A stretch of 50,607 nucleotides of DNA from positions 1-50,607 of the IMG/VR virus record IMGVR_UViG_3300010400_000025; one strand, 5' to 3'. This document shows positions 5,936-28,339 of this stretch, in pieces; the stretch's first letter is position 1, and each line of letters starts with the position of its first letter. Origin of the DNA: a virus (taxonomy: Duplodnaviria; Caudoviricetes). The translations under genes and the position numbers were made by a program. The notes beneath the pieces are model-generated. The model searched no databases, was not told the origin of the DNA, and saw only the letters and a program-made list of their open reading frames with translations.

Positions 5936-5961
5936 AGGGGGCTTCGGCCCCCTTTTCTTTT
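5936..5961 (+). terminator. Rho-independent terminator closing the early region
   Basis: AGGGGGC-TTCG-GCCCCCT followed by TTTCTTTT. Confidence 0.9.
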
Positions 5962-5988
5962 GCCTGCTGTCGGCGTCGTGTCTGACGC

Positions 5989-6140
5989 TGCCTCACCTTG
6001 GGCGGAAATAATTCGGTCGTTAGTGCCATTGGTCTGCCCCACCACACCATTGTACCCCCTTCGGGGGGATACAAGGTGAGGCAGGGCGCAGACCTTGCGC
6101 CTCGCCCCACCTTTGCCCCACCTTGGCAAGGTGGGGCAAA
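5989..6140. repeat. Iteron-like GCCYCACCTT repeats and palindromes; candidate replication origin
   Basis: TGCCTCACCTTG 5989-6000 / CAAGGTGAGGCA 6072-6083; GCCCCACCTT 6104-6113; perfect TTTGCCCCACCTTG-G-CAAGGTGGGGCAAA 6112-6140; CCCCC-TTCG-GGGGG 6055-6068. Confidence 0.6.
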
Positions 6141-6143
6141 CCG

Positions 6144-8390
6144 CTAATCGAAGACGCTTTTCGCTCTGACATACCAGCGCTTGTTTCGCTTCTTGTCGAG
6201 CAGCTGCACACGCTCCAAGATGCCACTCTTGACCCACTGTCCGATCAGCCTCTTGACCTGTGCCTTGTCGTCCGGCTCGGCGAGATCGAGATTGAGCGCC
6301 ATGGCGACGACATTGCCCACCCAATCGTCGCGCGCCTGGGCGTCCTCGCGCCACGGCTCGGCGCCGAGCACCTGCAGCACTGATGGGACGTCAGCCTTGG
6401 CGCCGTCACCGGACCCCACCGACCACGCCACCACCACCGCCACATGATCGCCCTCGCGCCAACGCGAGCTACCATCCGCAGCGTCCACCACCCCATTGCC
6501 CAGGTCGACATTGTCGAGCTTCAGCCATTCGGTTTCATCATCCACCCACGGCGCCAGGTTCGACGCCGCGTCGGTCACCCTGAACAGCGACCGATAGGCG
6601 GTCGTCAGCCCCAGCTGCTTGCCCTCTTTCTTCGTCATCCGCGCCAGCGCCCGCACAGAGCGCATCTTGGCGACCAGCGCCGATGCGCCTCGGGCGGCAT
6701 CGACCGATGCGTCAGGATCGCTTCCCTGGCTCGCCTTGCGGGCATGGTGCACGAACTCGATGCCGACGCCTGCCTGATCCGCCACCCTGATCCATTCGGT
6801 CATCACCATGTCGATGCCCGAATTGTTGTTCTCGGATATCTCATGCGAGCTAACAAACGGATCGATCACCAGGACGTCGATGCGCCGCGCCTGAAGCTCG
6901 GCGACCAACGCCGATATCAGCGGGTGCAGCAGCTTGACGCCGTTCTTGTCCTCGATCGCGGTGACCAGGCGCAGCGATCGACCGCTGTCGAGGAACAGCC
7001 GGTCGCCGATATCGGCGGGCTCGATCTTATGGCGCAGCATCGCCGCCGTGATGCGCCGCTGAAGCTCCTCCAGCGGGTCTTCGCCGTTGATGTACCAGAC
7101 CCGCAGCGTGCCCTTGGGCCGCATATGCGGCAGCAACGTCCTGCCGGTTGTCATCGCCAGCACGTCGACCGTGGTCAGGCTGCTCTTGCCGACCTTGCTC
7201 GGGGCGACGGTCATCGACGCGAAGCGCCGCACGATGTGCGTGCCATACAGGAAATCGCGCGGCGGGGTGGCGTCCGACGGCACATGCTGCCACGGCGTGG
7301 CGGCAACCATGGGTCCTTGCGCCTCGTCGGGGCCGAAGATGGATTCATATTCCGGCTCGACCTCGACCTCGGGGCTCTCGACGAACCATTGCTCGGCAAA
7401 GCCGGTCCAGCCCGCCTTTTCCGCCTGGTGGTAGATGTAGTCCGCCCCTAGCTCCCGTGCGCTCTCGATCGACGCGAAGACCCGGTGCGCTTTCTCCGTC
7501 GGCGCCTCGATGCCAGCCTTGTCGGTGAACTCCTGGAAGAGTTCCAGGCCGTCGCTGTAGTCGACCGCGCCGCGCAATGCGATGGCGATGTTGCGCCATT
7601 GGTCGTAGCCGATCACCGCCGGGTCGTTCGGGATAGCCCGCATCGCCTCGGCGACGAGCCGTGGGTCACCACGGAGCTTCTCGGGGGCAACTACCTTGCC
7701 GTCGCCGGTCTGCGTCCTGGCAGCCTCCGGTAGCTCGCTGCGCAGCTGCACCAGGAACGCATTGCGCTGCTCGATCGTGATGATCGTGAGTTCCTCACGG
7801 GGCGGCATCCCATCGGGCCAGCTGTACGGCTGCCTGGTCTGCGGATGCACGCCGCACGCCACGAACCATTTCGCCTCGCCCGCCAGGCTCTCAACCAATC
7901 CTGGCGCGAGCTTGCGCTCGCCGACCACGACCAGCTTGTGCTCGTTGTCGCGGAAGCGGACCTGGTCGTACCGCATCTCGGGCGGGCAGTTGTACGGCAG
8001 CAGCACCTTGGGCGGGCGCCCGATCCGCCTCGGCGCGGGGCCGAGCATCTCATGCGCGAGCCCCATGATGTGGCTCACCCATTTCGGCGTCAGCGTGTCG
8101 ATGTCGATGCCGGTCATGCCGGTGCCGTTGCAGCTGAAGCCGACGCTGGCGCCCATGGCGTGCCATAGCTCGATCGTCTCTGGCGTGGCCGTGAAGTCCT
8201 TCGACGCCTTGCCGATCCAGTCGCCGTTGATCAGCACGCCGGGGCGTTTTCCCGCGTTGCTGATGCCGCCTTGCGGGGGCACCACGGGCAGGAGATTATG
8301 GTAGCCAAGGTCCCAGCATCGCTGAAAATGGTTGATACGTGCGTCATTCGCGTTATGCTTGGACACAGGGTTCATCCACCCTTTTTGCAT
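6144..8390 (-). CDS. Primase-helicase (prim-pol N-terminus, PriCT-2-like domain, RepA/AAA_25 helicase)
   Basis: GIDID catalytic motif, GYDQWRNIAIAL, Walker A APSKVGKS, Walker B LVIDPF, FVHHARK, ARGASAL. Start may be 8375. Confidence 0.9.
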   Translation of the reverse strand: MQKGWMNPVSKHNANDARINHFQRCWDLGYHNLLPVVPPQGGISNAGKRPGVLINGDWIGKASKDFTATPETIELWHAMGASVGFSCNGTGMTGIDIDTLTPKWVSHIMGLAHEMLGPAPRRIGRPPKVLLPYNCPPEMRYDQVRFRDNEHKLVVVGERKLAPGLVESLAGEAKWFVACGVHPQTRQPYSWPDGMPPREELTIITIEQRNAFLVQLRSELPEAARTQTGDGKVVAPEKLRGDPRLVAEAMRAIPNDPAVIGYDQWRNIAIALRGAVDYSDGLELFQEFTDKAGIEAPTEKAHRVFASIESARELGADYIYHQAEKAGWTGFAEQWFVESPEVEVEPEYESIFGPDEAQGPMVAATPWQHVPSDATPPRDFLYGTHIVRRFASMTVAPSKVGKSSLTTVDVLAMTTGRTLLPHMRPKGTLRVWYINGEDPLEELQRRITAAMLRHKIEPADIGDRLFLDSGRSLRLVTAIEDKNGVKLLHPLISALVAELQARRIDVLVIDPFVSSHEISENNNSGIDMVMTEWIRVADQAGVGIEFVHHARKASQGSDPDASVDAARGASALVAKMRSVRALARMTKKEGKQLGLTTAYRSLFRVTDAASNLAPWVDDETEWLKLDNVDLGNGVVDAADGSSRWREGDHVAVVVAWSVGSGDGAKADVPSVLQVLGAEPWREDAQARDDWVGNVVAMALNLDLAEPDDKAQVKRLIGQWVKSGILERVQLLDKKRNKRWYVRAKSVFD

Positions 8391-8471
8391 TGGCCTTGGG
8401 GACCGGACGGCGGCAGCCGCGCCGGTCCCTTTTCTTTTTCTGGCTAACGATAGTCCCGAGCGTCCGGCGTG

Positions 8472-8897
8472 TCATCCGCCATTGTGAACAACGGAATCGT
8501 CGAGCGCCTCCAGCAGCATGAGCGCGCTGCCGTACAGCGCCCGCGCCCGGTGCTCGGCCTGCCAGTAGTGGTCCGGCAGCACCACCTTGTCCTTGATCGC
8601 GTCGGCCAGCGTTCTGTCGCGCGCGGCACGCGCCTTTTCCCAGGCTTCGCGGTAGCGATCGACACGGGCTCGCACCGCGCCGATCGCCGCCTCGCGCAGC
8701 GGCACGCCGGGGGCATAGGGCAGCGTGCCGTCGACAAGCTCGTCGGCGTGCTTCTTGTTGACGGCGCGCTTCTCGCCATACTCCGGCGGCTCATGCCACG
8801 GGATCGTCCCGGCTGCCTTGTTGGCTTCATATTCGGCGAGATCGATCAGCGGTGGCGACGGAGTCGCCTTGTCGTCCATGCTCGGGGTCTTGGTCAT
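8472..8897 (-). CDS. Hypothetical protein (141 aa)
   Basis: ATGA coupling within the leftward operon. Confidence 0.7.
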   Translation of the reverse strand: MTKTPSMDDKATPSPPLIDLAEYEANKAAGTIPWHEPPEYGEKRAVNKKHADELVDGTLPYAPGVPLREAAIGAVRARVDRYREAWEKARAARDRTLADAIKDKVVLPDHYWQAEHRARALYGSALMLLEALDDSVVHNGG

Positions 8898-9220
8898 GCT
8901 GCGGTCAGCCTATGCTCGTATATGTGGCGGTTCGACGGGATGGCGCGCATTGCGCTGAGCGTGCGCGCTACCTTTTTGAACGACACCAGGTCGCAGTCGC
9001 TGGTGCCGTGGTCGAGCATCATATGCAAGATCGCCCGCAGCTTGATCTCGACGTCGAAGCACACGCTGGTCTTGATCAGCGCCTCCATGTCGTCGATCAA
9101 CTCATTCAGCTGGTCGCTGAATGGCCCTTGCCGCCACAGCACGGCGAGGTCTTCCAGGAATCTTTCGTACAGGTCGATCTCCTCGATGCAGCGCTTCGCG
9201 CGTTCTCTCTCATCCATCAC
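8894..9220 (-). CDS. Hypothetical helical protein (108 aa)
   Basis: Coupled overlaps; AAAGGA RBS. Confidence 0.7.
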   Translation of the reverse strand: MMDERERAKRCIEEIDLYERFLEDLAVLWRQGPFSDQLNELIDDMEALIKTSVCFDVEIKLRAILHMMLDHGTSDCDLVSFKKVARTLSAMRAIPSNRHIYEHRLTAA

Positions 9221-9534
9221 GCCGTTCCTTTCATTTCCGGCTGGCCTTCAAACCTGGCGATCATCTCCTTCATCAGCGTGACGATGTCGGCGCGGCTGGC
9301 GCCGTTGCTGATGTAGTTGCAGCGCCCGTCGAAATTTTCGAACGGAAACACCATCAGCACGAAGCCGGTCGGCCTCGCCGAGCCGCGCTTGTCGCCGTTC
9401 AGGAACTCGTCGAGCGTGCGGGCAATCGCCTCCATCTGCGCATAGTGCTTGGCCTCGATCGGCGCATCGCCGAGCCGATCGCCGGGGCCGAGCTTCTCGT
9501 AGGCTGCTTGCGCGCGCCGCTTTGCCTCACCCAT
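9217..9534 (-). CDS. Hypothetical phage protein (105 aa)
   Basis: MGEAKRR start; GFVLMVFPF...NYISNGASRADIV block. Confidence 0.75.
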   Translation of the reverse strand: MGEAKRRAQAAYEKLGPGDRLGDAPIEAKHYAQMEAIARTLDEFLNGDKRGSARPTGFVLMVFPFENFDGRCNYISNGASRADIVTLMKEMIARFEGQPEMKGTA

Positions 9535-9841
9535 GGCGCAGCCTCTCGATCGCCTGCAGCTTGGTCTTCTCCTCGGCGATCGTGCGCTGGTGGTCGCTCT
9601 CCAGCTTGCGCAACGCCTCGGCGCCTTCGTGGGCGATTTCGGCAAGCTTCCTGCCGAAATCGTTCTTCATCTCGACACGCTTGCGTTCGTGCTCGGCCTC
9701 GATGTCGATGATGCGGCGGCGCTGCTCGTTGTAGACGCTCGGCGCGCGGCGCAGGAAATCGTCGACGCCGGAGCGCAGCGACGTCGTCGGTAGCTGGCCC
9801 TCGTTCGAGAAGCCGTGGTCGGCTGCGTGGTGGATCGTCAT
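9527..9841 (-). CDS. Coiled-coil protein (104 aa)
   Basis: GGAGGAG RBS; charged heptad-like helix. Confidence 0.75.
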   Translation of the reverse strand: MTIHHAADHGFSNEGQLPTTSLRSGVDDFLRRAPSVYNEQRRRIIDIEAEHERKRVEMKNDFGRKLAEIAHEGAEALRKLESDHQRTIAEEKTKLQAIERLRHG

Positions 9842-9963
9842 GGTTCTCCTCCATCATGGGTTACCGGGGAATCAGCAGTCCTTACCCCCGGCCCGGTACA
9901 GGCACTGTCGAGCCTGCCCTTTTGATCCTTCTATCGCCCTCGGGCGAAGTGCTGCGGAAACTC

Positions 9964-10431
9964 TCATGCAAAGACATCATGCTCGTTGTCGATGATCGCG
10001 CTCGGCAATGACGCCAGCGCCTTGGCGGCGATCTCGCGCTGCTTCTCCAGCTGCTGGCGCATCTCGTCGACCAAGGAGCCAAGCTCGCCTGCGGTAAGCT
10101 CGGTCGGCGGCTTGTCGGCGGCGGCGTCGGTGATGGCGATATTGGCCAGCTTGGCAAGCTCGGCAGCGGCGCGCACGCGGGCGTCGACCTTGTAGGTCTT
10201 GGTGCCAGCGACCTCGGCCAACACGTTGACCGAGAGAGCCCCGGCGCGCTCGAATAGAAAGCGCTGCGTCTCGGCCCTGGTGGCTTCCTGCACTGCCGGA
10301 TTGCCTTTCAAATGATTGCCCGCATTGATGGGGTCCGCGTACCCCGCCTTCCAGGCAGCATAATGCGGATCGCCGGTCTGCGCATGTGCTTTGGCGAAGC
10401 GCTGCTGCATATGTGTGAGCCTCGGCAGCAT
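9964..10431 (-). CDS. Terminase small subunit-like protein
   Basis: LTHMQQRFAKAH...AAWKAGYA...LKGNPAV matches the TerS N-terminal HTH pattern; helical oligomerisation region; ends HDVFA. Confidence 0.65.
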   Translation of the reverse strand: MLPRLTHMQQRFAKAHAQTGDPHYAAWKAGYADPINAGNHLKGNPAVQEATRAETQRFLFERAGALSVNVLAEVAGTKTYKVDARVRAAAELAKLANIAITDAAADKPPTELTAGELGSLVDEMRQQLEKQREIAAKALASLPSAIIDNEHDVFA

Positions 10432-10598
10432 CAGTCGAAGATTCCCTTTGGCGGCAGCGGCGGGAACGCCAGGGCGAACGCCGCCTCGGCGGTGTCGGCC
10501 TGGAACGTGTAGACCTGGCCCTGGGCGTGAATCTCCAGCGTCACGGCCTCGCCTGGCACGATGCAGTAGAGCGCCACGCCGAGCCCGCCCTGCCTCAC
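10431..10598 (-). CDS. Small hypothetical protein (start uncertain, at least 55 aa)
   Basis: GLGVALYCIVPGEAVTLEI...; GTGA/TGATG overlaps; ends KGIFD. Confidence 0.6.
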   Translation of the reverse strand: MRQGGLGVALYCIVPGEAVTLEIHAQGQVYTFQADTAEAAFALAFPPLPPKGIFD

Positions 10599-10837
10599 AG
10601 CTTCGAAGTCGGGGACGGCGGGATGATCTGGAACAGCGCCAGTATCTCTGCCGGGGTCCACGGCGGTGGCTCCGTTCGCAGCGGCAGATACTTCACCGGG
10701 ACCCGGTTGTCCGTCACTGAAATCAAGCCTAGTCCCGGCACTTGAATCCACGTCGGGTGCCGGTCCGTCGGGAAAAAGCGAAGCACCGAATAGCCTGCCT
10801 TTCGCAACCACCCGATTGCTTCGGCCAGCGGGATCAC
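10595..10837 (-). CDS. Hypothetical protein (80 aa)
   Basis: GTGA overlap with the RHH gene; IPLAEAIGWLRKAGY... Confidence 0.55.
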   Translation of the reverse strand: MIPLAEAIGWLRKAGYSVLRFFPTDRHPTWIQVPGLGLISVTDNRVPVKYLPLRTEPPPWTPAEILALFQIIPPSPTSKL

Positions 10838-11067
10838 GCGAAGATGTCCTGGGCATGGGTCTTGTCCTTCTTTTTCGTCGCGCCTTTCTTCCACTTCGGC
10901 GCCGGAGGTTCCCCGGCGAAGTGGTCGGTGAGCACGCCGATGACCACATCGGTCGCCGATATCCCGCTCTTGGTCGCCGCCATCCAAATTTGGTTTTTCA
11001 ACGGCGTCGGCACACGGATCGACATGCGCTCCGTGCGCTCGTCATCGTACTTGGGTTTGAACGTCAC
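10834..11067 (-). CDS. Ribbon-helix-helix DNA-binding protein (77 aa)
   Basis: GGAG RBS and GTG 11067; ERMSIRVPTPLKNQIWMAATKSGISATDVVIGVL fits the RHH pattern; ends QDIFA. Confidence 0.8.
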   Translation of the reverse strand: MTFKPKYDDERTERMSIRVPTPLKNQIWMAATKSGISATDVVIGVLTDHFAGEPPAPKWKKGATKKKDKTHAQDIFA

Positions 11068-11117
11068 CTTGGTTGCTCCGTTATGTGTCTTACGTATGTC
11101 ACAACAGGCGGTTTGCT

Positions 11118-13373
11118 TCAATCTTTCCGGTAGCGTTTTGCCTGGTATCCACCCGCCGTCAGCGGCAGGCCTTCGGCCCACGGCGGCAGCTGGCAGATCA
11201 GCCGCGCGAATTCTTCCGCCGAGCCGAAACCTCTCGGCACTTCCGTGATGATTTCGTCGTACACGGTGCCGATCACCGGGTAATTGGCGCGCTCGGCATG
11301 CAGCATGCCGTTGACCAGAATGTCGCGTGCGACAGCCTGGGTGTTGTTCTCGCACAGCAAGCCTCCATATAGGCCGAATCTGACGAATTGCTTGGTCTTG
11401 CCGTCGACGCCCAAGGCGGTCGCCTTGGGAAAGCTCTGGCGCTCGATCCTGGCCTTGCCGACCATCTCCAGCTTCTCGGCCAAGCTGGCTTCCATGACCT
11501 CGGGCTCGGCCCACACGCCGTCGACCAGTCGACGAGCGTAGACCTGGGCGCGCAGCCTCGGGTTGGCATAGGCAAGACAGCGGCCCGACGGCAGCATGCA
11601 GAACAGGTAGCCGTGCATGACGCGGTACTGGACGCCAGCCACGCTGGCGATCAGCCCAGGCTGCTTGATGACCGTGCGGACCGCCTCTTCCAGGTCCCAC
11701 CACGATTGCTTGATCGCCGAATTCGACGCCCGCCAGGCCCGCTTGATCAACTCGCAGGCCAGCCACGCCTCTTCGCTCAGCACCAGCGTGGTCTTCTCCT
11801 TGCGGCTGCAGCAAGCGTCATAGCGCTTCTCGGCGGCGGCGAGGTCGAGCAGATCGGCGCGTTCCATGACCGGGCCGTAGAGCGCGTCGAGATCGACGCC
11901 GTAGTTGCGCGCCATGGAAGCGAACGCCCCGACGCCGCCGCCAAAGCCGAGCGCAAGCTCGGCGACCTTCCCGACGCTCTGGCGCAGGGGATGCTTGGGT
12001 CCGATCTCATCTACACTACGGCCAACAATTTGCGCCGCCGTGCGGCGATACATGTCGGGCAGCGCCGGATCGGCGATGATTTCGAACATCGCCTGCAGCT
12101 TCCAGTTCTCGCCCGCCAGCCAGGCGACCACCGCGCCCTCGATGCCGGAATAATCGGCGACCACCAGCTTCTTCCCCGGCGCCGCCCAGATGAACCCGCG
12201 CACGGCGTCCGAGAGGAGGTGCATGGGGTTGCCAAGCTCGGGGCCGTAGAACAACTCCAGCATGCGCGGATCGGCGGATCGGATCGCCTTGAACAGCAGC
12301 GCCGGATTGGTGTGCAGCTTCGCCGCTTCGAAGCTCTTCCTCGGCCTTGGCAGATTGGCAAAGTTGACGCCGGTAGATTGAAATCTACCAGTGCTGGCGA
12401 CATGGTAGATGAACGCCCCGCGCACCCGGTCGTCGGTGAGCGAAGCGCGGCGCAGCATCGCCTCGATCTTCGACACCGACGTCTTGCCTGCGGAAAGCCG
12501 CAGCTGGATCGCCTGTTTCACATGAAACGGCGTGTTGACGTTGTCGAGCGCCTCCTTGAGGTCGGCTTTGTTGGCCGAGTTGATCGGCACGCCCTGCGCG
12601 TTGATCCAGTGGAACAGCGCCGCCGCCTGGGTGCAGGCAGTGACGACACCGCCGGTCGCGGTGCTCATCGCCGCGTCGAAGATGCCCTTGGACTTCTCGG
12701 CCAACACCAGGGCTGCCCTGGCGGACCGCACGTCGATGCGCAGGCCGCGCCGGTTGATCACCAGGCTAAGCCGGTAAATCTCCTCCTCGGCATCGCTGAG
12801 CGGCAGCATGCGGCGCTCGGCGGCTTCCTCGGTGAGCACGTCCTTCACGCAGTATTCGCGGAATTCCTGGTAGGCGCGCGGGAAGTCGCGCGGATCGTTG
12901 AAGGTCTCGAACTTGTTCGGGATCGAGAACAGCTTGATCAGGTCCTTGCCGCGCTTGTCCTTCTGGGTGTCGAGGTTGAGCGCCTTGCCCAAATTCTCCA
13001 GGTCGCGCGGCAGCGCTAACGCGCTCGCCATCGCTGCCGTGCAGCGGTATTTCTTCGGCGCCAGCCAGCCTCGATGTTTCGCCAGCCATTCGAACGCCAG
13101 CATCTCGAATTCGGCATTGTGGGCGACCAGCACGGCGCCGTCGGCGATAGCCTCGCGCATGTCGTCCGGCTGCGGCCAGTCGCGATCCCACAGCTGAAGC
13201 TCGCCGCCGCCGATGCGATACGCCATCATCAGCACTTCAGCCGACGGATGCTCCCAGTAGCGATAGGCGCCGTAGTCGAAGATATCGAGTTCGCAGCGCG
13301 ATTCCACGTCGGCGTGGATCATCAGCGCGATCTCGTCGATCGCCGGTTGTAGCAGGGCGGCGCGGGTGATCAT
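11118..13373 (-). CDS. Phage DNA polymerase, family A, with 3'-5' exonuclease
   Basis: DVES (ExoI), AHNAEFE, YCVKDV, STGRF, motif A DYSGIE, motif B GKVAELALGFGGG, motif C VYDE, ENNTQAVARD. Confidence 0.95.
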   Translation of the reverse strand: MITRAALLQPAIDEIALMIHADVESRCELDIFDYGAYRYWEHPSAEVLMMAYRIGGGELQLWDRDWPQPDDMREAIADGAVLVAHNAEFEMLAFEWLAKHRGWLAPKKYRCTAAMASALALPRDLENLGKALNLDTQKDKRGKDLIKLFSIPNKFETFNDPRDFPRAYQEFREYCVKDVLTEEAAERRMLPLSDAEEEIYRLSLVINRRGLRIDVRSARAALVLAEKSKGIFDAAMSTATGGVVTACTQAAALFHWINAQGVPINSANKADLKEALDNVNTPFHVKQAIQLRLSAGKTSVSKIEAMLRRASLTDDRVRGAFIYHVASTGRFQSTGVNFANLPRPRKSFEAAKLHTNPALLFKAIRSADPRMLELFYGPELGNPMHLLSDAVRGFIWAAPGKKLVVADYSGIEGAVVAWLAGENWKLQAMFEIIADPALPDMYRRTAAQIVGRSVDEIGPKHPLRQSVGKVAELALGFGGGVGAFASMARNYGVDLDALYGPVMERADLLDLAAAEKRYDACCSRKEKTTLVLSEEAWLACELIKRAWRASNSAIKQSWWDLEEAVRTVIKQPGLIASVAGVQYRVMHGYLFCMLPSGRCLAYANPRLRAQVYARRLVDGVWAEPEVMEASLAEKLEMVGKARIERQSFPKATALGVDGKTKQFVRFGLYGGLLCENNTQAVARDILVNGMLHAERANYPVIGTVYDEIITEVPRGFGSAEEFARLICQLPPWAEGLPLTAGGYQAKRYRKD

Positions 13374-13567
13374 GCGGGCGGCTCGCCGTCGTCGATGCAT
13401 ATCTGTCCGAGCGGGTAGACATGCAGCGTACGTTCGAACCCAGGCTCGATAGCTTCGACCACGCAATGCGGATAGCCGTCGAGGCTGTCGAACAGCACGA
13501 TGACGCGCCCGCAGAAATTGGCTCCTTTGCGCGTCCTGACGAGATCGCCGATTTCAAATTCGCTCAT
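13370..13567 (-). CDS. Small SH3-fold protein resembling DfrB/R67 dihydrofolate reductase (65 aa)
   Basis: FEIGDLVRTRKGANFCGRV...VVE...LHVYP parallels the DfrB pattern FxxGDRVRKKSGAAWQG...VE...VQIYP; GGAGG RBS and ATGA overlaps. Confidence 0.55.
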   Translation of the reverse strand: MSEFEIGDLVRTRKGANFCGRVIVLFDSLDGYPHCVVEAIEPGFERTLHVYPLGQICIDDGEPPA

Positions 13568-14115
13568 GCGAAGATGTCCTCCGCTGGCTTGGGCAGCAGC
13601 CGGGTGACGACCGGCACCGCGCCCCACACCCACCAGGTGCAATTCATCGTTGGCGAGCCGCCGCCGGTCCAGTCGAGACGCCACGTCAGCATAAGCTCCT
13701 GGCGGGGCGGGAAGGCCTCGTACAGCGCGATCCGCGAAGCGGCGTGCCAGTAGTCGGACTTGAGCAGCATCGCCACCAGGCGGCTTCCTGGCACGGCCTT
13801 GCGGATGAATTGCGCGGCCAGCGCGAATGGCGGGTTGGTGATGACGTAGGGGGTCGCCGGTCCGGTTTTCAGGAAGTCGACGCCGGAGATGCCGTGGCCG
13901 CGATCGACGAGATCGGTGGCGAACACCGGGAAGCCGTGCCGAGCCAAAACTCGAGCAATAGCACCGTCGCCACAGGCCGGTTCGTGGATGCGCTCATTGT
14001 CGTCGAGATAGCGGTCGATCGCCCTTATCAGCGCCACCGTCGCCGATTCCGGCGTGCGGTAGAAACCGTCGGGGTGCCGGTTCGCGGCACGCGAACGCTC
14101 GACGCCAGGGATCAC
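13564..14115 (-). CDS. Orphan DNA N6-adenine (amino) methyltransferase (183 aa)
   Basis: FYRTP, EPACGDG (SAM binding), DFL, ITNPPF catalytic motif; ends EDIFA. Confidence 0.85.
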   Translation of the reverse strand: MIPGVERSRAANRHPDGFYRTPESATVALIRAIDRYLDDNERIHEPACGDGAIARVLARHGFPVFATDLVDRGHGISGVDFLKTGPATPYVITNPPFALAAQFIRKAVPGSRLVAMLLKSDYWHAASRIALYEAFPPRQELMLTWRLDWTGGGSPTMNCTWWVWGAVPVVTRLLPKPAEDIFA

Positions 14116-14264
14116 TGCGGGCGCTCCCACAGCTGGTTGAGCGCCGTGCAGATCATCTCGGCGACATTGACGTCGTTGCATGATGCGATCGGCACGACGT
14201 TGTTCCACTGCCGGTCGAAGATCAGGTAGCTGCTTTCGCGGTGCTCGAAATAGAAGCGGCTCAT
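14112..14264 (-). CDS. Small hypothetical protein (50 aa)
   Basis: MSRFYFEHRESSYLIFDR...AEMICTALN; 4-nt overlaps at both ends. Confidence 0.6.
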   Translation of the reverse strand: MSRFYFEHRESSYLIFDRQWNNVVPIASCNDVNVAEMICTALNQLWERPQ

Positions 14265-14878
14265 GCGAACACATCCGCCTTCGGCGGCTGCTTGCGGGTG
14301 ACCTCCCGGCCCTTGAGGCCGCGCAGATAGTCGGACGACTTGAGTTCGATGCGCTGGTAGGCGTTGGCCACGCAGCGGACCTGGAACAGGCAGTCGTCAA
14401 GCGCGCTGTGCGGCGCACTATCCCGCTCCATTTCGCGAACGTCGAGCAGGGTAAGATCGTAGAGCGTGCGGGTGTCCCGCACGTTCCAGTAGCTCCACGG
14501 CACGCCGTCGAGCCCGACGGCCTCGCAGGCTGCCTGCCACAGCACCGGATCGAAGCTCGCGCCGTGCGCCCACAGCCGGGTGCGATCCGCCGGTCCCTTC
14601 GACCGGAACCACTCGTAGAATTCCTTCACGACGGCGCGCAGGACGTGCTGGTCCTTTTTCAGGATCGCCTGCACCTCGGCGGGCTGTTGCAGCCACCAGT
14701 CGCGGGTCTTGGGGTCGATCGTCAGGCCGACGACCTCGCAGCTGCGCGGCTCGATGTTGCGGTAGAACGTGTCGCCGGTCCTGCCGTCGATCTCGAATTC
14801 GACGGCGCCGATCGAGCGGATCACGCAGCCGGGGCGGACCCCGAACGTCTCCAAGTCGAGCATGACATGGTGCATCAC
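14261..14878 (-). CDS. DEDD 3'-5' exonuclease (DUF5051/ExoVIII-like)
   Basis: MLDLET, SIGAV, WAHGASFD, RDTRTL, HSALDD; ends ADVFA. Confidence 0.9.
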   Translation of the reverse strand: MMHHVMLDLETFGVRPGCVIRSIGAVEFEIDGRTGDTFYRNIEPRSCEVVGLTIDPKTRDWWLQQPAEVQAILKKDQHVLRAVVKEFYEWFRSKGPADRTRLWAHGASFDPVLWQAACEAVGLDGVPWSYWNVRDTRTLYDLTLLDVREMERDSAPHSALDDCLFQVRCVANAYQRIELKSSDYLRGLKGREVTRKQPPKADVFA

Positions 14879-15120
14879 CGCACCTCCATGATGAAGCGGA
14901 CGGCCATGGCGGCGACCTGGACCGCCTCTTGGCGGGCCTTCTCGACATTGTCGGCCTTGACCTCGTCCCAGAGTTCGTCGACCTCCTCCAACAGCACCGC
15001 GTAGCCTTCATGCGGGGAGTGGAAATGCACGTCGCCGTGTTTGCCGATGGCGTCGAAGACTTCCTGCTGAATGAGGTCCAGGACTGTTTGGTACTGAAGG
15101 ACGCGCGGAATCTCCCTCAT
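14875..15120 (-). CDS. MazG-like nucleotide pyrophosphohydrolase (81 aa)
   Basis: HEGYAVLLEEVDELWDEVK...EAVQVAAMAVRF all-alpha NTP-PPase pattern. Confidence 0.7.
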   Translation of the reverse strand: MREIPRVLQYQTVLDLIQQEVFDAIGKHGDVHFHSPHEGYAVLLEEVDELWDEVKADNVEKARQEAVQVAAMAVRFIMEVR

Positions 15121-15695
15121 TGCGGCAGCCTCGCGCCGAGCACCTCGCGCTCGATGTCGGTGAGGTCCCAGACGCCGCACACCAGCCACAGATCGGCGCT
15201 GCCGATCCGCCGCAGCAGCATCGGGTCCTTCGGGTAGACCTGGCTCCACTCGGCTTCGTAGAGGATGTGGTAATTCTCCTTGCCGCGCTTCGGTCGGATG
15301 TCCGGCGGGACATGCGGAACGTGCGACGTGTAGGTGCGCAGCAGCCGCCCGTTGAGGCCGGGGAACGTCGCATCGGGAAAGTCGAAATAGCGGTTCTTGG
15401 CCGTCTTGCCATTGACCCAGCTGGTGGTCGCCATGCGGAAGACCTGGTACTGGTGGCTGAACCAGCAGGTTCGGGCGTCAGCGCGGGCGATGGCGAGCTT
15501 CGGCAGCCCGTCCTCGCCCACCCCTGCCGCCGCGATCGACGCCAGCGCACGAATAACCACCTTGCCCTTGGCAATCGCATCGAAGACCCGGCGAATCTCC
15601 TGGTCGACGGGCGGTGAGTAATTCGCGTGGGTCTTGTACTTCTTCCACATCTCCAGGGCCTTGCTCCGGTCCATCTCGATGGTCTGAACGTCCAT
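15117..15695 (-). CDS. Hypothetical phage protein (192 aa)
   Basis: GGAGG RBS; GLPKLAIARADA, DPMLLRRI...WDLTDIER. Confidence 0.8.
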   Translation of the reverse strand: MDVQTIEMDRSKALEMWKKYKTHANYSPPVDQEIRRVFDAIAKGKVVIRALASIAAAGVGEDGLPKLAIARADARTCWFSHQYQVFRMATTSWVNGKTAKNRYFDFPDATFPGLNGRLLRTYTSHVPHVPPDIRPKRGKENYHILYEAEWSQVYPKDPMLLRRIGSADLWLVCGVWDLTDIEREVLGARLPQ

Positions 15696-15749
15696 GGTGA
15701 TCCTCCATCATCCAACGGAAAAACGATCCGATTGTCGGGAAGCGCGACC

Positions 15750-16040
15750 TCACCCGAACACGTCCGGCATGCCGAGCGCTTCGGCGTAAATGCGGTTGAT
15801 CTCGGCCTCGGCCTTCGCCTTGGCGGGGTCGAGGCGGGCTTTCACCACGGCTTTGACGGCCTTGGTGTCGAGGCCTTTTTCCTTGGCCTCCTTCAGCAGT
15901 TCTTTCTGATCTTCGCTGATCGCGCGCTTATCTGCATCGAGCGCCTCGTAGCGTTCGACGACGTTGCTCAGTAATTTGACAGCGACGGCGCGCTCATTGT
16001 CACCACCGCCGACGTCAGGTTGCTTACGTGCTGCTGGCAT
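15750..16040 (-). CDS. gapR: GapR (DUF2312)-like nucleoid-associated DNA-binding protein
   Basis: VVERYEALDADKRAISEDQKELLKEAKEKGLDTKAV...YAEALGM matches GapR; extra PDVFG tail; GGAG RBS. Confidence 0.8.
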   Translation of the reverse strand: MPAARKQPDVGGGDNERAVAVKLLSNVVERYEALDADKRAISEDQKELLKEAKEKGLDTKAVKAVVKARLDPAKAKAEAEINRIYAEALGMPDVFG

Positions 16041-16381
16041 CACCGTTTCTCCGTTCGTCGCCATCTGCGTTTCTTGCTCGCATGGCTGGGTACGCTTTTC
16101 GGACTGTCGAGATCGAGCGGTTCGAACCAGCCTCGGTTCGCCCATTGGGAGAAAAGCGCGCCGAACACTTCGGGGGTGTGCGGCTCGCCGATTTCCGTCT
16201 CAATCAAGAGCCGCAAATCTTCACCCATGCCGATCCAGTCGGCTGGTAGATCGCGCGCCAGGCTGGTCGCTGAACGTTTCCAGACCGCGCTCTCGCTATC
16301 GAGCGTTCGCTTCATCCCTTCGTCGCGGGCAAACGCCGCGACGACAGGATCAAAGACCAGGCGGGGTCCGTTTTTCAGCAT
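16040..16381 (-). CDS. Hypothetical protein (113 aa)
   Basis: TGATG overlaps at both ends; ARDEGM...GEDLR...PHTPEVFGALF. Confidence 0.7.
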   Translation of the reverse strand: MLKNGPRLVFDPVVAAFARDEGMKRTLDSESAVWKRSATSLARDLPADWIGMGEDLRLLIETEIGEPHTPEVFGALFSQWANRGWFEPLDLDSPKSVPSHASKKRRWRRTEKR

Positions 16382-17004
16382 CAGCCGAACAGGCTGCTGG
16401 CGCCGCCCGCCTTGCGGGTTTCGACGATGTCCTCGTCGCCCTCGACGTGCTCGTACCACTTGTCGATATCGAGCGGGCTGACGCCGCCGATCGATTCGCC
16501 GTCGCGGGTCTTCTGGAACATGCGGATGCCGAAGCTTACGCCGTCGCCGGAGCTTGGATGGTTCCATGCCCAGCAGTTGATCACGCCGAAGCCGTAGCAG
16601 CCGGAATAGACCTCCTCCTGCGTGGCCTGCATCTGCTTGGAATTCCACAGCACGACGGGCTTGCGGTCCTCGTTGGCGTTGCAGCGGATGAAGAATAGGC
16701 CGGGGCCGAAGCCGGGGTGCAATTCGCCATCCTGCTTGGAGCGCGCCTCCTTGCCGTCGCCCGCCAGCAGCGGGTTCTTGATGCCGCCCGCCTTGGCGCG
16801 GACCAGGCCTTTCTCGCCCCACTGCTCGACGATGATCTCGGCGATCACCTTCTCCAGCTGCGGGCGCCACTTGTTCTCGAAAATCAAGGTGCAGGAGAAT
16901 TTCTTCGGGGCGCCCTCGGCAGCCGAGCGCGGCTTGAACAGCCCCTGGCTGAACGCCAGGCGGCAGGGCGGGGATTTGAAGTCGTCAGAACGAGCCATAG
17001 CCAT
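16381..17004 (-). CDS. DUF2815-family ssDNA-binding protein
   Basis: RLAFSQGLFKP, KFSCTLIF, NPLLAGDG, EVYSGCY, GVSFGI, QKTRDGESIGG; ends SSLFG. Confidence 0.85.
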   Translation of the reverse strand: MAMARSDDFKSPPCRLAFSQGLFKPRSAAEGAPKKFSCTLIFENKWRPQLEKVIAEIIVEQWGEKGLVRAKAGGIKNPLLAGDGKEARSKQDGELHPGFGPGLFFIRCNANEDRKPVVLWNSKQMQATQEEVYSGCYGFGVINCWAWNHPSSGDGVSFGIRMFQKTRDGESIGGVSPLDIDKWYEHVEGDEDIVETRKAGGASSLFG

Positions 17005-17007
17005 TGA

Positions 17008-18300
17008 TCAGTTCTCCTTTTCACTGGGCTCAAAAAAGCGGTCGACGAGATTGCCGACGGCGGGACGGTTGGTCTTGTCGGAGCGCACCAGGTTCTGGCC
17101 GCTGACGTGCATGTGCCAAAGCGGCGTCAGCTTCTTCTTGGCAGCCGCCGGGATCAGCTTCTCGACCTGGGCGGGTGACATCAGCTTGCGGACGTAGAGC
17201 TTGGAAATGTCGATGTTGACGGCCTTGCCGATCTCGAAAGCCATGTCGGATTCACTGTCGCTGACCCACTTTCGCGTGCCGCGCTTGTCGACCAGCTGGT
17301 AGTTCGGGATGCTGCCGCCGCTCTCGACGAATTGCTGGGCGTAGCTGCGCCTGGCGTTCATCCAATTCTGCAGCGTGTCCATCATGTCGAGATCGCGGGC
17401 GAGCGCCTCCGGCGAGGTGTCGAGCACGCTGTTGTTCGGCGTCAATTCGCCCGTGTCGGGGTTCTCGTCGAACCACTTGTCGACGATGCTGCGGGCGTCG
17501 TTGGCGAGCGCCGGACAGACCCCTTCGGCAGGGCAGAATTGGCATTTTCCCGGTTTCAGGAAATTGTCGCGCCAATCGTCGAGCAGCACCTGGTTGCCCT
17601 GCGCCTTGGCGAACTCGTCGAGCGCCTCGTCGGCCCGGTGCATGCCCTTGAGAAGCTCGGTCGCCCACTCCAGTAGCTCGATGACGTGGAACGTCTCGGA
17701 GCGGATCACGCCGTCCTTGTGCTCGGCGCGCGGCTGCACGATCGTCGTCTTGACGCGCTCGGCGCCCAGGCCGGGATGCGCGAGCACGGCGCCGAGCGCG
17801 TAGGATCGCGTCTGGGCGTTCTCGGCGGCATCGACGATGACGCCCTTGCCGCCCTTGAGATCGACGATTTCGAGCAGTTTTTCCTTCGGCAGATAGGCAA
17901 TGAAATCGCCGGTCCCGCCGCTGTCGAACGGCGGGTTGAGCTTGGCCAGCGACAGCTGCTCTTCGATCCAGAATTGCGCGCCCTTGGCGATCAACCCACG
18001 GCAATAATCGACATAGGTCTGGGCGCACTGCGCCATCTCTTCGTCGACCGTGAAGGTGAAGCGACCGCACACCTGTTTTTCGCCGAGAAAGTCGCTGGCA
18101 TTGAGCTTGAGCCCCGCCGAACCCAGGCACATCTCGGCGATCTGGTGGGCGCACGTTCCCCAGGCAGCCGCTTCGCGCTCGATGCGGGCCGTATGCGGCA
18201 GCGACAGCGACAGCGCCAGACTGCCGGGGCAGTACAGGTGCCGCGCCGTCGCAGACGCCGCCCACGTCGCGTGAGCCCGCACGCTGTGCGAGGTGCTCAC
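17008..18300 (-). CDS. DUF2800-family (Cas4-like PD-(D/E)XK) exonuclease
   Basis: HATWAAS..CPGS, GTCAH, GGTGD, VDLKGGKG, YALGA, IVQPR, CQFCPAEGVCP. Confidence 0.85.
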   Translation of the reverse strand: MSTSHSVRAHATWAASATARHLYCPGSLALSLSLPHTARIEREAAAWGTCAHQIAEMCLGSAGLKLNASDFLGEKQVCGRFTFTVDEEMAQCAQTYVDYCRGLIAKGAQFWIEEQLSLAKLNPPFDSGGTGDFIAYLPKEKLLEIVDLKGGKGVIVDAAENAQTRSYALGAVLAHPGLGAERVKTTIVQPRAEHKDGVIRSETFHVIELLEWATELLKGMHRADEALDEFAKAQGNQVLLDDWRDNFLKPGKCQFCPAEGVCPALANDARSIVDKWFDENPDTGELTPNNSVLDTSPEALARDLDMMDTLQNWMNARRSYAQQFVESGGSIPNYQLVDKRGTRKWVSDSESDMAFEIGKAVNIDISKLYVRKLMSPAQVEKLIPAAAKKKLTPLWHMHVSGQNLVRSDKTNRPAVGNLVDRFFEPSEKEN

Positions 18301-18800
18301 AGGTCGATCCGCTTGCGCTTGAACGGGTTCTTGCTGGACATGTCCTTGATGTCCGCAATGACCTGGTCGTGCATGCCGGGAGGGATGTCGCTGACCTTGG
18401 CTACCGAGCCGTCGGTGAAGCGCAGCTTGTACATGGCCAGCACGTCGGGGATCGTGAAGTCCATGCCGTATTTGTCGACGTAGTGCTTGTTGAGCGCATC
18501 GCGGACCCGGTCGCGGGCTGCCTCGATGTCCTCGGCCTGCGTCTCGTCGGCGACCTCGGCCTGCGTCTCGGCGTCGGCGGCAGCCGCGTCCTGCTCGGGG
18601 CGCTCCTCGGTCGTCTTCTTCGGGCGTCCTTTGCCGCGCTTCGGCGCCGCCGCGACCTCTTCGGTCGCGGCGCCGTTGCCGACGGATTCCGGCTCGGCGA
18701 TCTGCTCGACCTTGGGGCCGATCGGCATGGTCAGGAACCCGACCATCTGGTCGCGCAATTCGGCTGCGTCATTGCCGGTAACGATGATCTGGATGGGCAT
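18297..18800 (-). CDS. Hypothetical protein with a low-complexity linker (167 aa)
   Basis: GGAG RBS; PKRGKGRPKK AT-hook-like motif; lies directly upstream of DUF2800. Confidence 0.75.
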   Translation of the reverse strand: MPIQIIVTGNDAAELRDQMVGFLTMPIGPKVEQIAEPESVGNGAATEEVAAAPKRGKGRPKKTTEERPEQDAAAADAETQAEVADETQAEDIEAARDRVRDALNKHYVDKYGMDFTIPDVLAMYKLRFTDGSVAKVSDIPPGMHDQVIADIKDMSSKNPFKRKRIDL

Positions 18801-18804
18801 TGTG

Positions 18805-20178
18805 TCAGTCTCCATTGTGAACACTCAAGACATTGCGAATTGCCGTCCACAGGACCAACAGGCGCCCCTGCACGGCTTCGTCGATCGAGTGCGCCAAGGC
18901 GCACACTTTCACGAAGGCTTGCCGTTTCTGGTTGATGTTGGTGATGCGCAGCGACATCTGCCGCATCTGGCGTGGCACGAATGTCGTCTCGGCGAACCAC
19001 AGGGTCGACGCGGCGCTGAGATCGATCGCCTCGCCCGCCGCCTCGATCTGGGCGAGGAAAACCTGGGTGCCGCCATCCATGAATTTTTCGAGGTTCAACT
19101 GGCGCTGCCTCGGCAGCGTCGAGCCGTCGATCCCGGTGACCGAGATGCCGCAATTGACGAGCCCGTCGAGCAACGCTCGACCGACGTCCTTGTGCCAGTA
19201 GGCGATCACCAGCTTGTCGAGCCCGCTGTCGAATTCGTCGGCTGCCGCCGCGACGATCGCCGGGGCCTTGATGGTGCCGGTCAACCGGCGCAGCGGTCCG
19301 AGATGCATGTCGAGCGCATCGGTGTCGCCCGCGTCGGCGGCGGCGAGGATCACCGCCTGGTCGAGGTCCTTCTCGATCTCGCGGCGCTGTTTTTCCGAGA
19401 TCAGCAGCGGCATGATTTCGAAGATCGGCGGGCGGATGCCGACCGATTCCTGCGTACGCCGCAGCATCCAGCCGCCGATGCGCTCGCGAAGCTCCTGCTC
19501 GTTGCGCCCGCCGACCACCACCGGAATCTTGTTCCAGGCGCTGATCTGCTTCATGCGGACGATGCAGTAGCGGTACATGAAATCGTCTTCCTGCCTGACG
19601 TCCGGCCAGCCCCTGGCGCGGTTGGCCATGAGCTTCTCCGGCGTCAGCGCCCGCAGCATCGGGTAGGCGTCGAACGGGCTATGCGGCAGCGGCGTGCCGG
19701 TCAGGCACCACAGCCGATCGCCGCGTATCGACAGCGAACGCAGCTGGTCGAGATCGCGACCGCCGCCGACCAGCTTGCCGTACAGCGACTGCGTGCGCTT
19801 GGCGCTGAAGCGCTTGGCGGCGTGGCTTTCGTCGGCGATGATGACGTCCCAGCGGTAGCCGATCAGGTTGCCGAGCTTGGCCGGGGCTTGCAGCAGCGAC
19901 CAGGCGACGATGATGACGTCGGCCTTCGGGACGCCACCGCCGATGTAGATCGCGGCGCGGCGCTCGGGCGACCAGTCGCGGAACGCCTTCTCCCAGACGG
20001 CACGGCCAGAGGCCGTGGTGATGACGAGAATGGTGTTGGCGTGGATGCGGTCGGCGGCGAGGATCGCGGCGCCGGTCTTGCCCACCCTGGGCTCATCGGC
20101 GAGCAGCCCGCTTGCGCCGATTTCCGACAGGAATGTCGCACCAGTCAGCTGGTGCGCAAATGGCGTCATCTGTGACAT
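18805..20178 (-). CDS. SNF2-family helicase
   Basis: LADEPRVGKT, IADESH, LTGTP, IDGST, GEAIDLSAA. Confidence 0.9.
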   Translation of the reverse strand: MSQMTPFAHQLTGATFLSEIGASGLLADEPRVGKTGAAILAADRIHANTILVITTASGRAVWEKAFRDWSPERRAAIYIGGGVPKADVIIVAWSLLQAPAKLGNLIGYRWDVIIADESHAAKRFSAKRTQSLYGKLVGGGRDLDQLRSLSIRGDRLWCLTGTPLPHSPFDAYPMLRALTPEKLMANRARGWPDVRQEDDFMYRYCIVRMKQISAWNKIPVVVGGRNEQELRERIGGWMLRRTQESVGIRPPIFEIMPLLISEKQRREIEKDLDQAVILAAADAGDTDALDMHLGPLRRLTGTIKAPAIVAAAADEFDSGLDKLVIAYWHKDVGRALLDGLVNCGISVTGIDGSTLPRQRQLNLEKFMDGGTQVFLAQIEAAGEAIDLSAASTLWFAETTFVPRQMRQMSLRITNINQKRQAFVKVCALAHSIDEAVQGRLLVLWTAIRNVLSVHNGD

Positions 20179-20257
20179 CTTCAGCCAAAAAAGCGCAAAT
20201 TGAGCGAATTGTGCCTATCGTGTCCTTGGGACATTGTGAACACGTCAGACACAGCAG

Positions 20258-20680
20258 TCAAGCGAAAACGCTCGTGGCGATCTCCTCGATCGTAATGATC
20301 AGCGCGGGCGCTTCGTGATACAACTTGCGGGCTTTCAATTCACAGATTTGAGCGTCGTCGTGCCAGCAAACGAGGTTGAGGGCATCAATAAATTTCGAGA
20401 CGTTGTCGACGTCCGGCTTTTTCGTCGGGAGGATGACGCCGGACAGTGCTTGCGCCTTCCACTTCTTTGATTTCGACTGCGGCACTTCCATGCGGATTTC
20501 GATTCCGACGCGCAGCGGGCCGCTCAAAAGCGGACGCCCAGCCATTTCGTGCTGGGCTTCGTGCGCCAGGCGTGCCTCGTAATGGATAGTCTTTTGCGGG
20601 GTGAATGGCCTTTGGCCTTCTTGGGTAAAACGCACCCTTTGCTTGCCAAGGGCGCGTCCTGCCACAACTATCGTGATCAT
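20258..20680 (-). CDS. rusA: RusA-family Holliday junction resolvase
   Basis: KQRVRF, KKPDVDNVSKFIDALN...WHDDAQI; ends TSVFA. Confidence 0.9.
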   Translation of the reverse strand: MITIVVAGRALGKQRVRFTQEGQRPFTPQKTIHYEARLAHEAQHEMAGRPLLSGPLRVGIEIRMEVPQSKSKKWKAQALSGVILPTKKPDVDNVSKFIDALNLVCWHDDAQICELKARKLYHEAPALIITIEEIATSVFA

Positions 20681-21124: not shown

Positions 21125-21583
21125 ATGGCTCGCACCCAAAAGCATCACATCATGTCTGACGCCCCCAACAATGCGGTAACGGCAGACGCACCCAGGCACC
21201 TGACTAAGCAGGAATTTGGTCGGCGCCTCAATCAACTTATGTTGAAGAAAGGCATGCATCACGCCGAGCTTGCTCGACGCGCCGATCTCCCCCGCAACAA
21301 CATCTCGACGTACATCAACGGTCGGTCCTATCCGACCGAGCAGAGCCTGGCGAAGCTCGCCAAGGCGCTCGGCACCACCTCGGACGAGCTTCTCCCGAAC
21401 AGGGCGGAAATGGCGATCCGTGGGGAGAGCCAGCCGGACCTTTCCATGAAGTCCAGTGTGGCCGATCCAGGCAAGGCATGGCTGGTCGTCAACCGGCTCG
21501 TCTCGACGAGGCTCGCCGCCGAGATCATGGTGCTGCTTGAGAAAGAGCGACTATCAGAATCCGCCCCCAACGGCGCAAAATAA
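21125..21583 (+). CDS. XRE-family HTH repressor
   Basis: FGRRLNQLMLKKGMHHAELARRADLPRNNISTYINGRSYPTEQSLAKLAKALG; no S24 peptidase domain seen. Confidence 0.9.
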   Translation: MARTQKHHIMSDAPNNAVTADAPRHLTKQEFGRRLNQLMLKKGMHHAELARRADLPRNNISTYINGRSYPTEQSLAKLAKALGTTSDELLPNRAEMAIRGESQPDLSMKSSVADPGKAWLVVNRLVSTRLAAEIMVLLEKERLSESAPNGAK

Positions 21584-21602
21584 GAAAAAAGGACCTGAAA
21601 AA

Positions 21603-28201: not shown

Positions 28202-28339
28202 TCGGTTCTCGTTCTGTGTCATACGCAGGAATAATTGTGGCATACGCAGCGTTTAAATGCATAAGTTTTCCGGCGGCGGTTTTTGGCATTTTTTCGCTGC
28301 CGTTTTTGGGGCCGGTCTTTCCAGAGATCGGCCCTTTTT

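Follow-up and report, generated by a model that had tools for sequence, protein, structure and literature searches.

A shared C-terminal tail on replication and recombination proteins of a temperate tailed phage, and its possible role as a docking peptide

Nine proteins encoded by one operon of a temperate tailed phage end in the same four-residue tail, [D/S/G]-[V/I/L]-F-[A/G/D], and orthologues in related phages keep it. The phage is virus record IMGVR_UViG_3300010400_000025, a complete genome of 50,607 bp (about 63% G+C, without end repeats), which was analysed at full length and is here called the window. It carries an integrase (21456-22808), a Cro/C1-type HTH protein and a large terminase (TerL, 46116-47777); our own rough codon-usage gene call gave 68 genes, whose start positions are uncertain. 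The nine proteins are encoded in one DNA replication and recombination operon (6144-20680), whose 20 genes all lie on the minus strand. Names were checked against Pfam and PHROG, which supplied those of the AAA_25/PriCT_2 protein, the family A polymerase, the phrog_799 methyltransferase, the Rv2179c-like exonuclease, GapR, the Enc34/gp2.5-type single-strand DNA-binding protein (SSB), DUF2800, SNF2 and RusA. The small-terminase-like (TerS-like) protein at 9964 and the ribbon-helix-helix-like (RHH-like) protein at 10834 have no Pfam or PHROG match and take their names solely from Atlas leads. The proteins that matter here, called tagged if they carry the tail, are listed below.

6144-8375, minus strand: primase-helicase (AAA_25 + PriCT_2), tagged, ..AKSVFD; tail codons and stop at 6144-6158
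9964-10410, minus strand: small-terminase-like HTH protein, tagged, ..EHDVFA (Atlas lead Terminase_2, 0.95)
10431-10577, minus strand: open reading frame (ORF) of 48 amino acids, function not assigned, tagged, ..PKGIFD
10834-11067, minus strand: ribbon-helix-helix-like protein, tagged, ..AQDIFA (Atlas lead RHH, 0.93)
11118-13400, minus strand: family A DNA polymerase, never tagged, ends ..KRYRKD
13564-14115, minus strand: DNA methyltransferase (phrog_799), tagged, ..AEDIFA
14261-14875, minus strand: Rv2179c-like 3'-5' exonuclease, tagged, ..KADVFA
15750-16040, minus strand: phage GapR, tagged; the domain ends ..ALGM, then PDVFG
16381-17004, minus strand: gp2.5/Enc34-type SSB (PF10991, phrog_112), tagged, ..GGASSLFG
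17008-18300, minus strand: DUF2800 / PD-(D/E)XK nuclease, never tagged
18297-18800, minus strand: acidic protein of 167 amino acids between SNF2 and DUF2800, function not assigned, untagged
18805-20178, minus strand: SNF2-family helicase, never tagged in this clade
20258-20680, minus strand: RusA Holliday-junction resolvase, tagged, ..ATSVFA

The tail is far more frequent than composition predicts. Among 705 stop-to-stop frames of at least 40 amino acids in all six reading frames, 13 end in [VILM]-F-x, and nine of these 13 are the named genes, all on the minus strand. Ends of the form [VIL]F[AGD] occur in 9 of the 68 called genes against 0.12 expected (binomial 5e-15, for a pattern chosen post hoc, after the data had been seen), and 10,000 rounds of shuffling the last 20 residues of each protein gave a mean of 0.12 tagged proteins and a maximum of 3. 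Tagged genes make up 9/20 of the operon and 0/48 of the genes elsewhere. A preliminary description of this DNA had listed these nine ends, had proposed tabulating termini against shuffled ones, and had stated that early-region and accessory genes lack the tail; all nine were found as written, and the enrichment is stronger than it claimed. Also present are the looser tails that it mentioned at 40454 and in TerL (RLF), the ESIFG inside the primase, and one more looser tail at 29104 (ALFQ). Its '55-aa ORF' at 10431 has 48 residues by the start used here. Of its protein names, those with Pfam or PHROG support stand; 'TerS-like' and 'RHH' remain Atlas leads only.

We then asked how the tail is distributed among relatives. 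No near-identical DNA was found in cultured phages. The closest records by polymerase protein are Rhizobium phage RHph_N65 (N65; 49%), a phage of Rhizobium phaseoli, and EBPR siphovirus 2 (EBPR2; 48%); [VIL]-F-x ends occur in 13/69 annotated genes of N65 and 11/76 of EBPR2. A polymerase scan of viral contigs returned nothing with the single protein; with an alignment it returned 65 viral contigs and 15 genome contigs. Tag enrichment was seen only in loci whose polymerase is at least 47% identical (L003, L004, L005, L006 and a prophage of Aminobacter sp. BE82, L068), and loci at or below 36% identity showed none. Likewise, an exonuclease alignment scan matched 297 viral contigs, of which 80 were taken: between 6 and 13 such ends lie on the gene strand in 14 of these 80 loci, each of which has the same module of DUF2815 SSB, DUF2800, SNF2 and polymerase (41-53% identical on contigs long enough to include it). 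Where the exonuclease is untagged, the number of such ends is 0 to 2.

Across 16 phages the tail follows an all-or-none rule by protein family. The table comes from clustered ORFs with a G+C content at third codon positions (GC3) of at least 0.62, and it lists the families that occur in 6 or more loci.

SSB: tagged 15/16; the sixteenth ends SLFGNQ
Exonuclease: tagged 14/14
RusA: tagged 11/11
Small-ORF family of 10431: tagged in 11/11 phages
108-amino-acid family: tagged 8/8
Methyltransferase families: tagged 7/7 and 6/7
Primase-helicase: tagged in 5/5 complete genes; 3 more run off contigs
GapR: tagged 11/14
Polymerase: tagged 0/16
DUF2800: tagged 0/15
SNF2: tagged 0/15
Acidic protein between SNF2 and DUF2800: tagged 0/14

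The three GapR exceptions are the longest frame of their cluster and look like wrong-frame ORFs; the GapR of L003 was found tagged in a separate check. Orthologues keep the tail at 33-60% identity while their linkers vary. The same end is conserved in 15 related phages and prophages. The preliminary description had asked whether orthologues gain or lose the tail independently; the 16 phages are one lineage, and the family counts show retention, not independent gains.

Within each phage the tails drift in concert. With the SSB set aside, one aliphatic residue predominates per phage: Val in EBPR2 (10 V), L212 (10 V) and L209 (7 V), Ile in N65 (8 I + 1 L) and L003 (6 I), and Leu in L204 (8 L + 2 I). 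Six window tags pass the GC3 filter, which excluded RusA and the RHH-like gene; four of the six have V and two have I. Two tags of one phage share the aliphatic residue at a frequency of 0.744, against 0.393 when tags are shuffled across phages (maximum 0.51; 0/20,000 shuffles reach the observed value). These dialects can change over short distances. L204 and L206 are 93% identical in polymerase and in SNF2, 79% in DUF2800, 66% in the acidic protein and 53% in SSB; four of their orthologous tags differ, L versus I, and there is no such difference in GapR (I in both), the small-ORF family (L in both) or SSB (L in both). On sequence grounds, such concerted change in several genes argues for one receptor with a shifting preference, and does not indicate which one. 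The pair is also a natural experiment for finding a receptor.

The tail is appended past folded domains through a linker, as the preliminary description had proposed, and structure prediction suggests that it is probably disordered. Among the best 120 homologues of the exonuclease, 37 end in [VILM]-F-x and about 10 more have another residue before the Phe; untagged homologues stop right after the last domain helix. (Our alignment of exonuclease tails comprises 34 tagged sequences picked from 122, and its Phe is invariant by construction.) An AlphaFold2 (AF2) model of the exonuclease, built from 61 of 121 sequences, is confident to about residue 187; the last ~20 residues have no secondary structure and a predicted local distance difference test score (pLDDT) of 53-59. 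GapR gives the same picture, and here too the earlier placement of the domain end at ALGM was right: chromosomal GapR ends ALGM[VAST] in 25/25 cases found (30 loci, Aminobacter relatives), and phage GapRs add (P)DVFG. Host GapR was taken from genome searches; a word-based homologue search gave only 9 matches.

For the window SSB, 97 of the best 120 homologues end in [VILM]-F-x (61 of them GLFG). Since 20 carry one or two extra residues, the distance from the tail to the carboxyl end is not absolute. Two of the 120 (P0189 and P0203) end in DDDIPF, one of them as GLFG followed by DDDIPF, and the SSB tail of distant relatives varies from lineage to lineage: DDDIPF (two loci, L008 and L055), DDFLN, SDFAV and others. 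Because DDDIPF, the host SSB tip, replaces the tail in some lineages, the tail on the SSB would be a protein-docking tip; phages with DDDIPF may instead plug into the host SSB interaction network. The window SSB has neither an acidic run nor I-P-F at its carboxyl end. An unstructured C-terminal segment is described for the DUF2815/Enc34 SSB family in PMC5686142.

A profile of the tail was drawn from 59 tails of eight loci (GC3 of the last 40 codons at least 0.7, with a few spurious frames included). Position -4 is D in 19, G in 15 and S in 14; position -3 is I in 22, V in 18, L in 17 and M in 2; position -2 is F by selection of the set; and position -1 is A in 13, G in 13, E in 10 and D in 9. 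Upstream the sequence is Pro- and Ala-rich, with mostly E, K, P, G or R at -5 (Leu in 4) and Gln at -6 in 3. Counted over the last 12 residues, roughly half of the nine tails in the window carry a net positive charge.

Selection appears to act on the peptide. The codons used are, by position, GAT/GAC/AGC/GGA, then GTC/GTG/GTT/ATC/CTG, then TTC/TTT, then GCA/GCG/GCT/GGG/GGC/GAT/GAC, and they follow genome codon preferences with one departure: the last Ala is GCA in 3/5 cases versus 9% genome-wide, which yields an ATGA stop-start overlap with the next gene. Untagged operon genes show the same overlap types. The DNA word for D[VI]F[AG] has 5 copies in the window (1.6 expected), each in frame at a gene end, and the word for [ILVM]F[G/A/D/E/V] plus TGA has 9, of which 8 are tags (1.9 expected). 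Comparison of orthologues leaves only the Phe codon and, in the aliphatic codon, its middle T as constant. Because the codons vary, and are too degenerate for a DNA signal, we conclude that selection is on a hydrophobic-Phe peptide and that a DNA signal is unlikely. This agrees with the preliminary description, which had favoured the peptide over a DNA or ribosome-binding motif from the codon differences between genes; the synonymous variation extends to orthologues.

These observations lead us to suggest that the tail is a C-terminal docking peptide tethering accessory DNA enzymes to one replication hub, probably phage-encoded. We give this reading, which is drawn from sequence patterns, about an even chance; that the tail binds any partner, and which partner, we infer. 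In this scheme x-[D/G/S]-[I/V/L]-F-x-COOH on a flexible linker would be the short linear docking peptide. Its clients (SSB, primase-helicase, proofreading-type exonuclease, methyltransferase, RusA, GapR, the TerS-like and RHH-like proteins and the small ORF) would be held by one common receptor in the replication machinery, and would then act at or just behind the phage replication fork. The first candidate receptor would be the family A polymerase, which leads on two grounds: the analogy with T7, and the lack of a tail on this enzyme in every phage compared. Next in line would be the SSB core, the acidic protein beside SNF2, SNF2 and DUF2800. The C-terminus of the polymerase is basic and conserved in the 16 phages (KRYRK[DE] or a variant). 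Residues ~620-651 of the polymerase form a clade-specific insertion, to which no connection with the tag could be made.

T7 offers the closest parallel. The tails of its gp2.5 and gp4 bind a basic patch of the gp5 polymerase in the account of PMC12339929, and PMC5686142 describes the gp2.5 tail as contacting polymerase and primase-helicase. As in T7, a gp2.5-type SSB and a primase-helicase here share a Phe-containing C-terminal tail, which is appended and probably disordered, and the family A polymerase has none. The T7 tails, however, are long and acidic with Phe last (peptide DTDF in PDB 6P7E, as quoted in PMC12339929), whereas the tail here is four residues long with Phe next to last, its surroundings are often basic or rich in Pro, and it is found on at least seven further families, among them exonuclease, RusA, GapR, methyltransferases and the TerS-like and RHH-like proteins. 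T4 and RB69 are also similar in that several unrelated proteins end in a shared short hydrophobic peptide, carried on flexible linkers that diverge: PMC2988020 describes the tails of gp43, gp55 and gp33 on the clamp gp45, and the gp43 end ..FLFG resembles tails of the present set such as GLFG, SLFG and DVFG. They differ in that T4 encodes a clamp and its polymerase carries a tail; here no clamp gene was found and the polymerase is never tagged. The complete record has no PF00712 match, and no clamp family was detected in 69 Pfam-scanned proteins (a clamp too diverged for Pfam would escape). Finally, the bacterial SSB tip (DDDIPF) is likewise a protein-docking tail on an SSB, and some members of this SSB family carry it. 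Bacteria, however, have one tail-bearing SSB and many pocket partners; here there are many tails, which implies one pocket.

The principle of a shared tail is therefore already known from T4 and T7, and the preliminary description went too far in knowing of no such system, given gp43, gp55 and gp33 on gp45 and gp2.5 and gp4 on gp5. What is new is the motif, its wide range of clients and its V/I/L dialects, together with a polymerase that has no tail and a phage genome with no recognisable clamp. No description of the tail in this phage group was found in open-access full text and bioRxiv (subscription journals and supplements lay outside the scope of that search), and the name 'RHph_N65' did not occur in the open-access literature searched.

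Several points weigh against the docking reading. The tail is not acidic and its Phe is penultimate rather than last, and in detail it is not of the T7 type. In all 16 phages the SSB tail has Leu, even where the other tags follow a different dialect, so the site used by the SSB may not be that of the other clients. In the L204-L206 comparison above, divergence among the core proteins is least in polymerase and SNF2 and greatest in SSB and the acidic protein, a pattern that does not favour the polymerase over the latter two. Furthermore, the co-occurrence of tag and module is equally expected from common descent alone.

A bolder form of the docking idea, which we put forward only tentatively and judge less likely than not as a whole, is that the tag is a private, fast-drifting address code. 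Its receptor would be phage-encoded and not a clamp (a polymerase site, the SSB core or the acidic protein) and would gather at least 10 clients, including methyltransferases, resolvase, nucleoid protein and the TerS-like protein, into one replication-repair-packaging assembly; the concerted V/I/L switches would prevent cross-talk between related co-infecting phages.

The docking hub could instead be the host beta sliding clamp, with the tails as degenerate clamp motifs that ride clamps on phage DNA much as T4 proteins do on gp45. We consider this unlikely. The canonical clamp motif is given as Q-aliphatic-x-[L/M]-[F/L] in PMC11139829, according to which clamp motifs are frequent in C-terminal tails and the Gln is helpful but not essential. 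Like it, the tag is a disordered-tail motif with a hydrophobic residue and then Phe, often preceded by S or D, on DNA-acting clients such as the clamp has. The [S/D]-L-F core of QL[S/D]LF recalls the SSB tails SLFG and GLFG; T4 gp43 ends ..SLDFLFG and gp55 ..SLDFLYEAND, and the T4 clamp tails are described as interchangeable and on divergent flexible linkers (PMC2988020). The absence of a phage clamp by Pfam also fits, and MuC of phage Mu is reported to use the host clamp (PMC12867686). The motif itself argues the other way: in the tag both the Gln and the aliphatic residue after it are missing. Of the 59 tails, 3 have Gln at position 1 and 4 have Leu at position 2; at position 4, I (22) and V (18) together outnumber L or M (19), the SSB family always having L there and the other tagged families mostly I or V. 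The polymerase, which should be the first client of a clamp, is tagged 0/16, and a host pocket, being highly conserved, should not give rise to dialects that differ from phage to phage. The earlier suggestion of a phage-wide address tag directing DNA-acting proteins to one hub thus fits the distribution, and its host-clamp option is weakened by the motif mismatch and the dialects.

Host proteins give the clamp no further help. A scan of an Aminobacter genome for genes ending [ILVM]F[AG]-TGA, which covered only [AG] ends before TGA, gave 55 matches against 20 in a reversed control, and 48 were inspected. The real genes were housekeeping genes (a membrane transporter, HlyU, PGA_cap, adenylosuccinate lyase, DUF6629 and an EAL protein) and two ImuB paralogues, the rest being prophage or short low-GC3 frames; no known clamp client used the tail. 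The ImuB paralogues (L145 and L146) end ..RWFLHGVFA and ..RWFLHGIFG and are the only DNA-related host proteins with such an end, and among ImuB-C representatives 121/150 end in [VILM]-F-x, HGLFA being the commonest. A free tail in ImuB is unlikely: AF2 places residues 92-99 in a beta-strand with pLDDT ~92 (25 short sequences of 151). To judge from this model, the likeness to the tag is probably coincidental.

It is improbable, in our estimate, that the tails copy the SSB C-terminal tip, and so plug into SSB-tail readers or into the concave groove of the phage SSB, with clients handed to, or competing with, SSB-coated DNA. Such a role would suit the DDDIPF ends of two close homologues and two distant loci, and crystals of Enc34 ORF6, other DUF2815 proteins and T7 gp2.5 show the tail in a neighbour's concave beta-sheet in the description of PMC5686142. 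Furthermore, the L-to-I switch between close phages coincides with an SSB diverged to 53% identity. The SSB tail itself, however, stands outside the dialect, and a groove-bound tail would recruit clients only to DNA-free SSB.

Exposed C-terminal tails are also classic protease tags, and non-polar ends of the ..LAA type are familiar from known ones. A shared degron, by which ClpXP, Lon or FtsH would clear the replication proteins together, for example on entering lysogeny, would make sense in a temperate phage (integrase, Cro/C1-type HTH protein) whose nucleases and methyltransferase are plausibly wanted short-lived. We nevertheless give it, the timed-degradation option of the preliminary description, little credence: the last residue of the tail is small or acidic (A 13, G 13, E 10 and D 9 of 59), unlike the ..LAA type, the most constant carriers are SSB and primase-helicase, which are needed in bulk, and a conserved host protease would not be expected to give phage-specific dialects.

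Least probable is a nucleotide or translation signal at gene ends (coupling, re-initiation or a recombination junction) with the peptide as its by-product: most tagged genes do stop at TGA, several overlapping the next start as ATGA or GTGA, and the final codon is partly shaped by this overlap, but untagged operon genes overlap in the same ways, third positions vary like the rest of the genome, two tags (6144 and 16381) end at TAG or precede gaps, tags persist in orthologues with different neighbours, and the D[VI]F[AG] word never occurs outside in-frame gene ends.

Some further observations concern individual genes. The primase-helicase of the Aminobacter prophage ends NEDIFG, and the N65 orthologue of the TerS-like protein ends DIFE. 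The TerS-like gene (9964-10410), which is tagged, belongs to the replication operon and is separated by 36 kb from that of the large terminase; this may couple packaging with the replication assembly. Where the window has the acidic protein (18297-18800), relatives carry an acidic protein with a basic patch, never tagged; the window protein and its N65 counterpart are similar in make-up, with homology not detectable between them (E 0.6). The SSB of the Aminobacter prophage L068 can be read in one frame (5937-6317) for its C-terminal 126 residues only, the N-terminal part apparently being in another; the gene may be frameshifted in the prophage or in the assembly. The polymerase gene of EBPR2 (L002, 26691-29828) is interrupted, matching the window polymerase in two pieces, and an off-frame ORF inside it (28175-28969) ends ..RSVFD, the phage's own dialect; this may be a mobile ORF that acquired the tag.

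Phe-containing ends also occur on other proteins outside the tagged group. SNF2 ends in [VIL]-F-x in the distant relatives L007, L013, L014/16/18, L050, L056 and L057. Many DUF2800 proteins of distant relatives (L007-L082) have an acidic-Phe pair in the last 4-8 residues (..EDFGAAV, ..EFTKTESR, ..KEEFGS). From these sequences, the carrier of a Phe tail seems to differ by lineage. Outside the operon, one window protein has a looser tail of the same form.

40454-40930, minus strand: structural-module protein, ends ..KSLFK

Its N65 orthologue (L001, 1914-2525) ends ..DNLFK, and the middle of the protein is not alignable between the two. Proteins of this type may be a second client class or may have an unrelated conserved end.

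A different DNA word, TGTTCACAATGG, is common to the ends of gene 8472 (..VHNGG) and SNF2 (..VHNGD). It occurs exactly at 8479-8490 and 18812-18823, with 1 mismatch at 20231 and 43861, and with 2 mismatches at 28087 and 46103. Looser copies lie directly before the start codons of SNF2, gene 18297 and the portal gene, and the word looks like start-codon context (..CACAATG). It is not significant in the window (6 matches versus 2.5 expected; 5/100 shuffles reach 6).

The textbook docking tails join three T4 proteins to a clamp and two T7 proteins to a polymerase; here one four-residue tail is found on 9 to 13 proteins per phage, in widespread temperate phages of Alpha- and Betaproteobacteria that include a cultured Rhizobium phage. 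The all-or-none family rule predicts a single receptor, which would be either the host clamp or one of four core proteins without a tail. If the docking reading is right, it would explain how replication-coupled methylation, proofreading, junction resolution and perhaps packaging are organised in small phages that lack a clamp, and it would give a sequence rule for assigning small ORFs without known function to the replisome. It would also provide a natural co-evolving peptide-receptor code and a portable tag for directing proteins to phage replication sites.

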